Assembly (NCBI RefSeq): GCF_058153355.1
Contig: NZ_CM177019.1
Direction: 5' to 3' (one strand)
DNA: 64,000 nt
The translations under genes and the position numbers were made by a program. The notes under the pieces are model-generated. The model had not been told where the DNA came from and made no database searches. It was given only the letters and a program-made list of their open reading frames with translations. How positions within the stretch are numbered: the stretch's first letter is position 1; each line of letters starts with the position of its first letter. This document shows, piece by piece, positions 2,396-36,596 of the stretch.

Positions 2396-3151
2396 TTAAC
2401 GCAAAATCTCACACTGATGATCCTGGATTTCCTCGGCTGAAGCACGGTTCAGCGTCAGTAGATTTCGTTGTGTCGCCAGCAACACAAACGAATTATCACT
2501 CTGCCGCACCATCGCCAGCCCGTAGCTTCCCATATGTTCCCGCGCCTCAGGCACTTCTTCTGCAAGCATCATAAATGGACTGCGTTGTACCAGTTCGCTT
2601 TCCGTTACCCGACGCGCCAGATATTCATGCCCGCGCAAGCCACCTGGCAGCGGCAACCAGCGACTGCTGATGTTCGCCAGATTATTATCCAGCTGTTCGC
2701 GCACATCAGGGCGAATACAAGAGATATGAATATGAAAATGGTTTTGCGTACGTCCGGTGCGGGAGTTAATCGCTAAAGAAACCGCGCGATCGGGAACCGG
2801 CTGCCCATATTTTTTACTCATAAAATCACGCGCCTGCCAGGCCAACCAAAAAAAGTTAGGCGTAGAAGGATCGGTCAACAAAGGGCTTTCAGTACCGTTA
2901 ATACGATACGTTGGCATCAACAGATATTGCAGTGGACCATTGAGGTCTTTTAAAACCACATATCCGGCATTGGGTTTGACTTCCGCACATGGCGAAGGAT
3001 TTTGATTTTGCTGCTGATTGGGTAAACATTCCTCAAGGACAATCTTACGTAATGTATCCGACTCTTCGCCGGTTAATTTCCAGTAACCAATACCAGCAGC
3101 CACAACGGCGATAACTATCATCACCAAAAAAAGAAGACCCGCTTTTTTCAT
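2396..3151 (-). CDS. cdh: CDP-diacylglycerol pyrophosphatase
   Basis: The longer ORF is 2396..3343. Start is placed at the internal ATG (3151..3149) that begins a membrane-anchor N-terminus ([24 protein letters not shown]), giving 251 aa. Confidence 0.85.
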
Positions 3152-3202
3152 CTTTTTTTCCCTGTACCTCAAAGAGATGCAAGGGTAACGCAAAATCGTG
3201 AC

Positions 3203-3245
3203 AAATAAAAAACCCGGTCGCGAGAAACCACCGGGGTTGATAATT
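3203..3245 (-). terminator. likely rho-independent terminator of sbp
   Basis: Minus-strand hairpin (ccccggtggtttctcgcgaccggg) followed by TTTTTTATTT. Confidence 0.5.
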
Positions 3246-3257
3246 ATCCTGGGGAAA

Positions 3258-4247
3258 TCAGCGTTTGCTGATCTGATCGAACGTACCGCCGTTAGCAAAA
3301 TGCTCTTTTTGCGCTTTCGTCCAGCCGCCGAACTCTTCATCAATGGTGAATAACTTCAATTTTGGAAACGCATTTTCGTACTTTTTCGCTACCTCAGCGT
3401 CGCGCGGACGGTAGTAGTTTTTCGCGGCAATTTCCTGACCTTCTGGCGAGTAGAGATATTTCAGGTAGGCTTCCGCCACCTCTTTAGTACCTTTTTTCTC
3501 AACCACTTTATCGACCACCGACACGGTTGGCTCTGCGAGGATAGACTCACTCGGCGTGACGATTTCGAATTTATCTTTCCCCAGTTCATTCGCTGCCAGC
3601 AGAGCTTCGTTTTCCCAGGCAATCAGTACATCGCCAATTCCGCGCTCGACAAAAGTGTTAGTGGAGCCGCGCGCGCCAGAATCCAGAACTTCGACGTTTT
3701 TATACAGTGCCCGAACAAAATCCTGCGCTTTTGCCTGATCGTTGTTGTTGTGGTGCAGCGCGTAGCCCCAGGCAGCCAGGTAGTTCCAGCGCGCGCCACC
3801 AGAGCTTTTCGGATTAGGCGTGATCACCGAAACACCCGGTTTAATCAGATCGTTCCAGTCATGGATCTGCTTCGGATTGCCCTTACGTACCAGGAAAACA
3901 ATGGTGGAAGTGTACGGTGCGGAGTTATCCGGCAGACGTTTGATCCACTCTTTATCAATCCGCCCGCGTTCCGCAATTGCGTCCACGTCATAGGCCAGAG
4001 CCAGAGTGACAACATCAGCTTCAATACCATTGATTACCGACGTCGCTTGTTTGCCTGAACCACCGTGTGACTGACGAATCACCACGTTATCGCCAGTTTG
4101 CTGTTTCCAGTGGGCGCTGAATGCCTTGTTGTACTGTTCGTACAATTCGCGCGTTGGATCATATGAAACGTTAAGAAGCTGAATATCCTTTGCCATAACG
4201 CTGGTTGCCGCCAGCAAAAATGTTAACCCTACGCCCCACTTGTTCAT
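3258..4247 (-). CDS. sbp: periplasmic sulfate-binding protein
   Basis: 329-aa ORF with signal peptide; sequence recognised as Sbp. Confidence 0.92.
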
Positions 4248-33911: not shown

Positions 33912-34543
33912 AACGACGTGACACCATCGTGCGCTACACCGCGCCGGAACGTATCAACCACTGGATCACCGCCTTCTGCTTCATCCTGGCGGCGGTGAGC
34001 GGGCTGGGCTTTTTGTTCCCTTCCTTTAACTGGTTGATGCAAATCATGGGCACACCGCAGCTGGCGCGCATTCTGCACCCGTTTGTCGGCGTGGTTATGT
34101 TTGCCTCGTTCATCATCATGTTTTTCCGTTACTGGCATCACAACCTAATCAATCGGGATGATATCTTTTGGGCGAAGAATATTCGTAAGATCGTCGTCAA
34201 CGAGGAAGTAGGTGACACCGGGCGTTATAACTTCGGTCAGAAATGCGTTTTCTGGGCGGCGATTATTTTCCTGGTCCTGCTGTTGGTGAGCGGCGTGATT
34301 ATCTGGCGTCCTTATTTTGCGCCTGCTTTCTCAATCCCGGTGATCCGATTCGCGTTAATGCTGCATTCATTTGCCGCAGTGGCGTTAATTGTGGTTATCA
34401 TGGTGCATATCTACGCCGCCCTTTGGGTGAAAGGCACAATTACCGCCATGGTGGAAGGATGGGTTACCAGCGCCTGGGCGAAGAAACATCACCCGCGCTG
34501 GTACCGTGAGGTCCGCAAGACAACGGAAAAGAAAGCTGAATGA
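33908..34543 (+). CDS. fdoI: formate dehydrogenase-O cytochrome b556 subunit
   Basis: 211 aa, four TM helices; overlaps fdoH stop. Confidence 0.93.
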
Positions 34544-35469
34544 GTATTCGCATAATCCCGCAAGATGAGCTGGGTTCGAGCGAGAAACGTACGGCGGATA
34601 TGATTCCGCCGTTATTGTTCCCTCGGCTCAAGAATTTATACAACCGCCGCGCCGAACGTCTGCGCGAGCTGGCAGAAAATAATCCGCTGGGTGATTATCT
34701 GCGCTTTGCTGCGCTTATCGCCCACGCCCAGGAAGTGGTGCTGTACGACCATCCGCTGGAAATGGATCTGACTGCACGCATTAAAGAAGCCAGCGCACAG
34801 GGCAAGCCACCGCTGGATATTCACGTTTTGCCGCGTGATAAGCACTGGCAAAAGCTGCTGATGGCAATGATTGCTGAGCTGAAACCTGAAATGAGCGGCC
34901 CGGCGCTGGCAGTGATTGAGAATCTGGAGAAGGCATCAAGCCAGGAGCTGGAAGATATGGCCAGCGCGCTGTTCGCCTCTGATTTCTCGTCCGTCAGCAG
35001 CGATAAAGCGCCGTTTATCTGGGCTGCACTGTCACTCTACTGGGCGCAGATGGCCAATCTGATCCCGGGCAAAGCCCGCGCTGAATACGGCGAGCAACGT
35101 CAATATTGCCCGGTTTGTGGTTCTATGCCGGTGTCCAGTATGGTGCAAATTGGCACCACTCAGGGTCTGCGTTACCTGCACTGCAACCTGTGTGAAACTG
35201 AATGGCACGTAGTGCGCGTAAAATGCAGCAACTGTGAACAGAGCGGCAAACTGCATTACTGGTCGCTGGATGACGAACAGGCCGCGATTAAAGCCGAAAG
35301 CTGCGATGACTGTGGCACTTACCTGAAGATTCTTTATCAGGAAAAAGAACCGAAAGTTGAAGCCGTGGCAGATGACCTCGCCTCTCTGGTACTGGATGCG
35401 CGAATGGAGCAAGAAGGCTACGCCCGCAGTTCCATTAACCCGTTCCTGTTTCCGGGTGAAGGGGAGTAA
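34540..35469 (+). CDS. fdhE: formate dehydrogenase formation protein
   Basis: 309 aa; CxxC pairs ([30 protein letters not shown]). Confidence 0.93.
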
Positions 35470-35547
35470 TCTCTGACGTTTTCCGGGTGACGCTGGTCGC
35501 CCGGATTACAGTTGATAGGGTGTGACGACACCTGCTATTCCCGCAAA

Positions 35548-35593
35548 ATCTCTCGTATTTTGCGAGGCGTTTTCCAGATATGATGTAACAGTT
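35548..35593. repeat. copy A of a ~45-bp imperfect direct repeat (ttttgcgagGcgttttccaga...gttgcaAtt)
   Basis: About 80% identical to 35998..36043; the two copies flank the small RHH gene. Confidence 0.6.
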
Positions 35594-35683
35594 GCAATTA
35601 TTATAAGTTCAAGTAAAACAACCTTGTATTAATACCAGAATAAGGGGATCTGGTTTTTATATTCAAGAATAAAAAATTTTTTG

Positions 35684-35902
35684 TCATTCCTTATGCTCCT
35701 TACACTGATCATCGACACCCACTGTCTCCCCCTTTTGCCTGCCTCCCTTTGCTTTACGCACAGGGAATTGCTGACGTTCCAGATATTGCTCTACCGCTTC
35801 GCGTAAAATTGCAGATCGTGAAACCTTACGCCAGCCCCTAAGCTTGTTCAGCCGTTTAATTGTCTCTTCTGATAAATGAAGAAAAACCGTATTCATCGTC
35901 AT
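35684..35902 (-). CDS. small ribbon-helix-helix (CopG-like) putative regulator of the YiiE/YiiF family
   Basis: 72 aa from ATG at 35902 (MTMNTVFLHLSEETIKRLNKLRGWRKVSRSAILREAVEQYLE...). Which K-12 paralog this is was not resolved. Confidence 0.7.
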   Translation of the reverse strand: MTMNTVFLHLSEETIKRLNKLRGWRKVSRSAILREAVEQYLERQQFPVRKAKGGRQKGETVGVDDQCKEHKE

Positions 35903-35997
35903 TGCCACCACCTAACATATATTACTCATTAATGTATGTGCGAAAATTACGCCGAAAAATCATTTAAAAAAAGCGGATTTTTGCATGCTGTTTTGTT

Positions 35998-36043
35998 TTT
36001 GCGAGACGTTTTCCAGAAATAATAAGAACGTTGCAGTTGTTTC
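35998..36043. repeat. copy B of the ~45-bp imperfect direct repeat
   Basis: ttttgcgagAcgttttccagaaataataagaacgttgcagtt, about 100 bp upstream of the RHH gene start. Confidence 0.6.
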
Positions 36044-36596
36044 ATTTGTTAATCAAAAATGGTTTGGTTATCGCCCAGGATGAGATATGGGTGCTATAAA
36101 TATATTATATTCAGGGATATTTATTTTTTGATTGGGTCTTCATTTGCATAATCTGAATGGTGTACCCGAAAAACGTCAGCATCCTAACAGCACCAGGATT
36201 TAAGGTGAAATTTAACATCCATCACAGACCGGTCAATGCTGCCGCCAACCGGTCTTTACTTGCTCGTCGTTATAATTTTGTGGGTAACAGTTCGGGAAAC
36301 AAGGAATTCCTTCCGGAACACCCCGGTATCATCCGATAGCATTGACGTCAATCATCAGCGCGACGGTGAGTTTTTTTAATCGAATCATAGGATGGTAACG
36401 TTAAGCACGATTACGGGTCATAGTAAAACTCCTGAGCAGGCGGCACTATGCCGCTTTCACAGGAGTTCTGAATGCTGGTGCTTTCTGTATGGCATAACCA
36501 TGCCCCTCGCGGCTAAGTGCCTGCACACTTCTCTCTTTGTATGTCATTTTTGCAATGCATTGGCCGAATTCTGGTAATTCTAATGAGTTTTACTCT

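Follow-up and report, generated by a model that had tools for sequence, protein, structure and literature searches.

CRP-S sites are asymmetric, non-canonical binding sites of CRP at which the complex of CRP with cyclic AMP (cAMP) activates transcription only jointly with the competence co-activator Sxy (TfoX). PMC6728893 gives the E. coli motif of Sinha et al. 2009 as T4G5C6G7A8-6N-T15T16C17C18A19, in which the C at position 6 and the TTCCA half-site lower the affinity for CRP and create the requirement for Sxy (PMC6728893). In experiments on the sxy promoter, whose half-sites are TGCGA and TTCCG, both of these unlike half-sites were needed and orientation was irrelevant; a class I-like mechanism has been proposed for CRP-S promoters (PMC6728893). 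radC is among the classical genes of the Sxy/CRP competence regulon (PMC1635313), and two toxin-antitoxin operons with CRP-S promoters have been described, E. coli hicAB (promoter P1) and H. influenzae toxTA (HI0660/HI0659) (PMC6957337). Here we describe two predicted CRP-S sites in a 64,000-nt stretch of DNA (contig NZ_CM177019.1 of assembly GCF_058153355.1, hereafter the window), which belongs to E. coli, its fdoHI genes being 98.3-99.4% identical to those of complete E. coli genomes. The sites form the cores of two imperfect direct repeats, copies A and B, which lie on either side of yiiE, a gene for a small ribbon-helix-helix (RHH) protein (Table 1).

The plus-strand core of the repeats reads TTT-TGCGA-GGCGTT-TTCCA-GA. 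Site A (TGCGA-GGCGTT-TTCCA) and site B (TGCGA-GACGTT-TTCCA) both match TGCGA-N6-TTCCA exactly, and they are the only two matches in the window, where 0.21 would be expected. This 22-bp architecture is the same as that of the CRP-S sites of the E. coli competence regulon (sxy, ppdD, yicR/radC and yifB/comM), and the GGC at the start of the spacer is common to the sxy, ppdD and radC sites. The distance from site to start codon, about 105 nt, is within the range of 44-145 nt found for competence genes. In contrast to those sites, the genes concerned here encode small RHH/antitoxin-type regulators and not DNA-uptake machinery, and one of the two sites has no gene. With the canonical CRP-N site, TGTGA-N6-TCACA, the repeats share the 22-bp length, two 5-bp half-sites placed 6 bp apart and the protein that would bind them, but their base 6 is C where the canonical site has T, and their second half-site is the non-palindromic TTCCA. 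We put at about 0.78 the probability of the following interpretation: the cores are CRP-S sites, yiiE and a second unit, yiiF-vapC, ancestrally carried one such site each, a deletion ending at site A orphaned that site, and CRP-Sxy activates yiiE through site B. The identity of the conserved cores as CRP-S sites is indicated by the consensus, by likeness to K-12 sites, by conservation and by position, and from this identity we infer their dependence on Sxy.

The repeats constitute a single two-copy family of 45 nt, with 35 of 45 positions identical (78%) and a start-to-start distance of 439 bp; a first-pass annotation of this DNA had recorded the pair correctly, though with somewhat different figures (about 80% identity, about 450 bp apart). 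Their first 21 nt, TTTTGCGAG(G/A)CGTTTTCCAGA, differ at a single position (20/21 identical). Allowing up to three mismatches, this 21-mer is found in the 64-kb window at copies A and B only (0.00 expected, from 100 shuffles). The raw repeat sequence, used as a literature query, returned zero matches, and a scan of 35300-36700 against Rfam detected no RNA family.

Candidate CRP-S sites of K-12 were retrieved by searching promoter regions with the pattern TG[CG]GA-N6. Seven were obtained, upstream of sxy (attTGCGAggctctTTCCGaaa), ppdD (attTGCGAggcgttACGAAgaa), radC (cttTGCGAggcgctTTCCAgga), comM (tttTGCGAgcatcaTTCCAccg), gntX (aaaTGCGAgctaagTTCCTcgt), sbmC (gagTGCGAgtctgcTCGCAtaa) and smf (cttTGCGAttggtcAGTGAtgc), sxy being the only one whose half-sites are confirmed in the literature. 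The upstream regions of hicA, hofM and ssb in K-12 gave no candidate with the TGCGA pattern, and their sites, if any, deviate from TG[CG]GA. Both repeat cores closely resemble the candidate sites of sxy, ppdD, radC and comM. A position weight matrix (PWM) was built from the seven competence-gene promoters, with yiiE and yiiF excluded, and applied to the 127,958 22-mers of the window. Copy A ranked first (21.3 bits) and copy B second (20.1 bits), followed by a next-best 22-mer at 13.0 bits, on a background with a mean of -12.4 and a standard deviation of 5.9. In leave-one-out scoring, the seven training sites themselves ranged from -1.8 to 19.8. When only the half-sites and the three 5' flanking bases were scored, copies A and B tied for the first rank (16.5 versus 13.0 bits).

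The position of the sites becomes clear from strains that have two paralogous genes at this locus. In K-12, the order in the orientation of the window is fdhE, yiiF (minus strand), copy A, yiiE (minus strand) and copy B, so that yiiE has copy B, and yiiF copy A, as its upstream element. Both copies are present in K-12 with a perfect 21-mer core, and they hold the same places with respect to yiiE in O157:H7, another two-gene strain. In each unit, the centre of the 22-bp core lies about 105 nt before the start codon. The first-pass annotation had placed two K-12 paralogues at this position, and K-12 indeed has yiiE (b3889) and yiiF (b3890) where the window has yiiE only; in K-12, the second RHH gene sits not between the repeats but beyond copy A. 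Between copies A and B of the window, yiiE is the sole credible open reading frame (ORF), encoding 72 aa from an ATG or 75 aa from a GTG at 35911, and its product matches Pfam RHH_1 (E=6.5e-12). YiiE and YiiF share 44% amino acid identity (E=3e-15), and in the K-12 alignment the two units are paralogous over their full length, upstream and coding, as tandem duplicates are. The region upstream of yiiE in the window resembles that upstream of yiiF in two-gene strains over 84-125 nt, at 73-77% identity.

Such paralogy raises the possibility that the repeats are merely a decaying, functionless relic, left when an RHH gene and the region upstream of it were duplicated in tandem long ago. The full-length relationship of the units, the protein identity and the upstream similarity are what this would predict, and so is the condition of the outer 23 nt of the 45-bp repeat, which are only 58% identical between the copies and are not conserved across genera. 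The core does not behave in this way. In 21-nt windows along the alignment of the K-12 yiiE and yiiF units, identity is 0.90-0.95 at the site and 0.3-0.7 around it; the 21-22-nt core is 95-100% identical within paralogous surroundings at 30-70%. Likewise, Escherichia, Superficieibacter and Enterobacter have kept the site near-invariant upstream of their YiiF-like genes, amid flanks that have diverged. Neutral decay would not spare this block alone, and the near-identity of the site amid diverged flanks therefore supports a function. Considering that other genera also retain the core, that it recurs at non-homologous loci and that it fits a regulatory consensus exactly, a functionless relic is improbable.

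A second conserved block, GCAAG.GTA.TTT, is found 48 nt downstream of the site and is also kept across the three genera in the alignment of regions upstream of YiiF-like genes. The candidate -10 hexamer of yiiE, TAATTT, begins at this distance from the end of site B, and yiiF promoters have TA(C/T)TTT at the same 48-nt spacing from their site. If TAATTT is taken as the -10 element of yiiE, the centre of the site would be near -70.5 to -72.5, a class I-like position, with a predicted transcription start near 35937 on the minus strand. This spacing bears on the idea that the repeats are operators through which YiiE and YiiF regulate themselves or each other. RHH antitoxin-like proteins usually autoregulate and one copy lies upstream of each RHH gene, so the idea is a natural one. 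Autorepression operators, however, normally overlap the core promoter, and the core is about 50 nt upstream of the likely -10. It also lacks the tandem or palindromic sub-repeats typical of RHH operators, as far as can be read from its sequence, and the predicted DNA-reading beta-strands of the two paralogues differ (TVFLHLS in YiiE and RILLDLS in YiiF), whereas the core is shared. radC and sxy-like positions carry the same 19-22-mer, and so do many loci and species in which no RHH gene is nearby. A better candidate for an RHH operator is the palindrome CATTAATG within ACATA...TATGT (around 35915-35941), which is nearer to the start of yiiE. Autoregulation through the repeats is thus quite unlikely. 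Of the earlier suggestion of paired operator-containing regions, the pairing is retained, each repeat being the regulatory region of one of two paralogues; the RHH operator is replaced by an exact CRP-S consensus.

Read in the direction of the genes (CTGGAAAACGCCTCGCA), the core could also be taken for a sigma-54 promoter, with GG at -24 and GC at -12, and this GG-N10-GC spacing is retained in a variant copy B (TTGGATGCCGTCTCGCA) described below. A PWM of 50 sites bound in chromatin immunoprecipitation sequencing (ChIP-seq; PMC4591121), with the consensus TGGCAC-N5-TTGCA, gave the two copies 3.7-5.3 bits, against a minimum of 7.9 and a median of 16.1 for the bound sites. Between 190 and 359 other 17-mers of the window score equally, and the A at position 5 of the copies occurs in 0 of the 50 sites. 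The same matrix retrieved its positive control, the intragenic sigma-54 site IS47 (fdoI) of Bonocora et al. 2015, at 34061-34077 on the plus strand (CTGGCGCGCATTCTGCA), as the best match in the window (16.8 bits). The main texts of the ChIP-seq study (PMC4591121) and of a genomic SELEX study (PMC8743547) do not mention yiiE or yiiF, although K-12 carries both copies. On these scores and this silence of the main texts, a sigma-54 promoter was rejected as exceedingly improbable. Resemblance to a MetJ metbox or a marbox was considered and dropped as a poor fit.

Several observations weigh against the CRP-S interpretation itself. The PWM comprises only seven sites, which we located ourselves with the TGCGA pattern, and three of the seven share the GGC spacer with the repeats, so the full-length score is inflated. 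The class I-like spacing depends on a hexamer (TAATTT/TACTTT) that resembles a -10 element only weakly, and a generic sigma-70 promoter scan detected no good promoter at the candidate -10 region. The second half-site is not invariant, since copy B of some strains, such as Nissle 1917, reads TGCGA-GACGGC-ATCCA. A literature search returned no paper linking yiiE or yiiF with Sxy, the microarray study of Sinha et al. lying outside that search. This study reportedly defined 34 CRP-S transcription units in K-12, and the odds are better than even that the yiiE and yiiF sites are already in its list.

The content of the second unit is best seen in the strain ECOD1. Copy A is followed there by an 80-aa RHH gene, the yiiF orthologue, whose stop overlaps the start of a 124-aa PIN gene annotated VapC. 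This overlap indicates that yiiF is the antitoxin gene of a vapBC-type operon; the C-terminus of YiiF, we assume, resembles the tails of VapB proteins. Like hicAB and toxTA, yiiF-vapC would be a type II module behind a CRP-S site. It differs from both in having the antitoxin first, where hicAB and toxTA have the toxin first, in its families (RHH and PIN) and in the fate of the toxin, which has decayed in most E. coli, the whole module being gone in the window. The adjacent, overlapping RHH and PIN genes that make up a vapBC module are thus found in ECOD1 but not in the window, which keeps 17 codons of vapC and no yiiF. A toxin partner of yiiE was not found in any strain examined.

Compared with ECOD1, the window lacks 657 bp, comprising the core promoter of yiiF, yiiF itself and vapC except for its last 17 codons (NTRDFAGIAGVVTPYQL followed by the stop). 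The deletion ends at the first bases of copy A, to which the vapC remnant is directly fused. The persistence of a vapC fragment shows the single-gene state to be derived. It was the deletion that fixed the left end of copy A as a repeat, because the upstream similarity in two-gene strains runs on for 84-125 nt. A degenerate third repeat seemed at one point to lie downstream of K-12 yiiF, where the shared flank AATACGAGAGAT suggested recombination between copies; this flank proved to belong to vapC, as the 3' end of its coding sequence. The deletion is a microhomology event and not repeat recombination. Tandem duplication followed by loss of one paralogue, which the first-pass annotation had offered as the origin of the repeats, is therefore upheld as far as the genes are concerned, there being RHH paralogues of which one was lost. 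The repeats themselves were not generated by that loss, since K-12 and O157:H7 have both copies.

The state of the locus was surveyed in 5,426 complete E. coli genomes. yiiF is present in 4,745 and absent from 681, and the junction seen in the window, without yiiF, accounts for essentially all of the latter (678 genomes, 12.5%). Strains with this junction are mostly B2-type and include Nissle 1917, E2348/69, 536, S88 and NC101. An intact vapC was detected in just 57 genomes. About 1% of E. coli have a complete vapBC module and about 86% a decayed one, and in 12.5% it has been cleanly deleted; K-12, O157 and TUM20902, for example, contain only decayed vapC fragments with repetitive extragenic palindromic (REP) elements inserted. 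The earlier account of the repeats had been made to depend in part on the single-gene layout with both repeats being absent from other strains, and the 678 genomes have precisely this layout. They fall into two alleles at the junction. In 541 of the 678, a vapC-derived C (TTTCGCGA allele) makes site A read CGCGA, an impaired half-site, and 136 carry a T (TTTTGCGA allele) and a perfect site A, like the window. The copy B region also varies. In three loci, one of them of Nissle 1917 (L093, L007 and L006), a patch of about 25 nt (GACGGCATCCAAAGATAATGTAACAGTT) changes TTCCA to ATCCA; its distal half resembles copy A, pointing to gene conversion between the upstream regions of the two units.

Under the CRP-S interpretation, the locus would ancestrally have consisted of two minus-strand units, yiiE (RHH) and yiiF-vapC (RHH antitoxin and PIN toxin), each having a CRP-S site of its own, centred about 105 nt before the start codon and kept near-identical. 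The lineage of the window would have undergone the 657-bp microhomology deletion, with its endpoint precisely at the boundary of site A. Under conditions in which cells produce Sxy and have high cAMP, CRP-Sxy at copy B would recruit RNA polymerase in a class I-like manner and switch on yiiE, and copy A would act likewise on yiiF(-vapC) in two-gene strains. Copy A of the window would then be a stranded activator site with no cognate promoter and nothing obvious to activate. A hexamer TGTAAT (35498-35503, minus strand) in the region of the vapC stop follows the end of orphan site A at exactly 48 nt, the distance at which the candidate -10 elements of yiiE and yiiF follow their sites. Because of this identical spacing, the perfect orphan site, which is present in about 2.5% of E. 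coli including the window, might drive Sxy-dependent antisense transcription of fdhE.

The core is not restricted to this locus. In a search of one genome per prokaryotic species, the 19-mer CTGGAAARCGYCTCGCAAA was retrieved at 70 loci, about 50 of them in Enterobacteriaceae, where at least a dozen contexts unrelated to each other are represented. Within E. coli, it is present in the spacer between radC (yicR) and coaBC in 5,424 of the 5,426 genomes. In Enterobacteriaceae, several different toxin-antitoxin operons also have it at a distance of 65-130 nt from their start (Table 1). Candidate Sxy-wired modules may thus include yiiF-vapC, yiiE, relE-like/nadS, the gp49/higB-like pairs, relBE at cybC and symE/rhuM. 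The presence of the 19-mer beside so many toxin-antitoxin-like genes suggests that Sxy control is more general than the two published cases. Sxy/CRP-S wiring could be recurrent for the toxin-antitoxin and orphan-antitoxin modules of Enterobacteriaceae, with Sxy commanding a growth-arrest battery of which YiiE and YiiF would be the RHH regulators, a generalization that we advance tentatively and to which we give somewhat less than even odds.

Further instances of the motif occur between fdhE and fabY. In several loci, a third CRP-S-like site is found 82-91 nt from the start codon of an alpha/beta-hydrolase gene beside fabY. What lies on the far side of this site varies by genus, being a yiiF-like gene, relE-like/nadS, a phosphotransferase system (PTS) EIIBC gene or, in Phytobacter, fdhE directly. 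Between fdhE and fabY there seems to be a long-standing variable region in which CRP-S sites are scattered. Such an arrangement could also be read as a hotspot of integron-like cassettes, the motif being their recombination or attachment site: one copy stands at the start of each small unit (yiiF-vapC, yiiE, relE-like/nadS), and the third is beside the hydrolase gene, with cargo that differs among genera. No recombinase gene is associated with it, however, and the motif is also found in fixed core-gene promoters such as that of radC. Homology between strains is unbroken at the motif, save for the one microhomology deletion, and CRP-S function accounts for the motif fully, so cassette recombination appears very improbable.

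If the CRP-S interpretation is right, a puzzling repeat is explained by ordinary, known regulation combined with a common strain-specific deletion, and the sequence evidence places yiiE and yiiF, poorly characterised in K-12, in the Sxy/CRP-S competence regulon. Elements of the CRP-S type are already known. What may be new is the recognition that yiiF is the antitoxin gene of a vapBC operon now mostly decayed, together with the distribution of the deletion among E. coli genomes and the wider association with toxin-antitoxin genes. Were the latter pattern true, it would link the enigmatic competence regulator of E. coli to toxin-antitoxin biology and would provide testable targets for the natural conditions under which Sxy acts.

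Table 1. Features of the yiiE locus in the window, of the intact module in ECOD1 and of other loci with the 19-mer or a CRP-S-like site (L numbers are our locus handles).
Feature	Sequence	Coordinates	Strand	Basis or remark
Predicted CRP-S site B, TTTTGCGAGACGTTTTCCAGAA	Window	35997-36018		Consensus and PWM; predicted Sxy and cAMP-CRP site of the yiiE promoter
Predicted CRP-S site A, TTTTGCGAGGCGTTTTCCAGAT	Window	35558-35579		PWM rank 1 and position; yiiF(-vapC) promoter site in two-gene strains, orphaned here
Repeat copy A	Window	35558-35602	+	Comprises the CRP-S site and 23 nt of paralogous, promoter-distal sequence
Repeat copy B	Window	35997-36041	+	Repeat search of the window
yiiE, 72-aa RHH (CopG-family) protein	Window	35684-35902	-	ORF list, DNA identity and RefSeq annotation, Pfam
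Candidate -10 hexamer of yiiE, TAATTT	Window	35944-35949	-	Sequence reading; begins 48 nt beyond the end of site B
vapC 3'-end remnant, last 17 codons	Window	~35509-35560	-	96% contiguous match to ECOD1 vapC; tblastn
Deletion junction	Window	35558-35560		Exact 3-nt TTT microhomology within an imperfect TATTT(C/T)GCG match
fdhE	Window	34540-35469	+	Context; followed by a terminator hairpin at ~35486-35510
Uncharacterised 637-aa ORF	Window	36597-38510	-	ORF list; the earlier islet, not bounded by the repeats
yiiF orthologue	ECOD1 (L086)	3366-3608		RHH_1, E=5.6e-6
vapC	ECOD1 (L086)	2992-3366		PIN, E=4.4e-19
CTGGAAARCGYCTCGCAAA near a RelE-like/NadS helix-turn-helix pair	L003	6831-6851
CTGGAAARCGYCTCGCAAA near a RelE-like/NadS helix-turn-helix pair	L008	4982-5002
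CTGGAAARCGYCTCGCAAA near a RelE-like/NadS helix-turn-helix pair	L059
CTGGAAARCGYCTCGCAAA near Gp49/HigB-like toxin pairs	L012, L053, L021, L047			Between ilvY and ilvA
CTGGAAARCGYCTCGCAAA near relBE	L080	2200-2218		Beside cybC
CTGGAAARCGYCTCGCAAA near SymE-like/RhuM	L051 group			Eleven species
CTGGAAARCGYCTCGCAAA near yiiF-like genes	L033, L071
Third CRP-S-like site, beside the alpha/beta-hydrolase gene	L003	6831-6851
Third CRP-S-like site, beside the alpha/beta-hydrolase gene	L033, L058, L059, L063

The neighbours of the yiiE unit in the window are fdoH-fdoI-fdhE on the plus strand to its left and the 637-aa ORF on the minus strand to its right, with fabY and yiiD farther to the right. The first-pass annotation had taken the 637-aa ORF for a phosphatase-like islet that begins immediately beyond copy B and had placed a rearrangement junction at this repeat. 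Homology to K-12 in fact runs 258 bp past copy B, to 36299, and resumes at 38347, so that 36300-38346 are missing from K-12; only copy A abuts a junction, that of the yiiF-vapC deletion. K-12 keeps about 164 nt of the beginning of the 637-aa gene, which RefSeq gives as an incomplete coding sequence, and the gene is split or pseudogenised in O157:H7 and ECOD1. It is evidently K-12 that deleted 2,047 bp, with most of this gene, and not the window that gained an islet; the gene is, on this evidence, ancestral and widely decaying, not inserted. FDAARGOS_1257, another single-gene strain, is colinear with the window as far as 36525 and then contains other cargo, nadS and an alpha/beta-hydrolase gene. 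No match to the 637-aa product was found in Pfam, NCBIfam or PDB sequences. It contains a C-x5-R-like motif, GCKSAKDRT.

Two observations from the wider set of loci concern genes of other kinds. An uncharacterised family of proteins of about 150 aa is encoded 220-310 nt from CTGGAAARCGYCTCGCAAA in three contexts (L044, L016 and L066, from Enterobacter, Leclercia and Lelliottia); the family has no credible Pfam match, one sub-threshold match being the only one retrieved. An Enterobacter context with a LexA-box-like sequence, which we had guessed to be an sbmC or uvrB promoter, is actually located between aat and clpA, beside an uncharacterised 150-aa gene.

The yiiE unit of the window, together with both CRP-S copies, is enclosed by a 16-nt inverted repeat, with arms at 35473-35488 (CTGACGTTTTCCGGGT) and 36164-36179 (ACCCGAAAAACGTCAG) that are 94% complementary. 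The rough chance expectation for such a pair is about 0.1. It is found in K-12 too, and one of its arms overlaps the start of the fdhE terminator.

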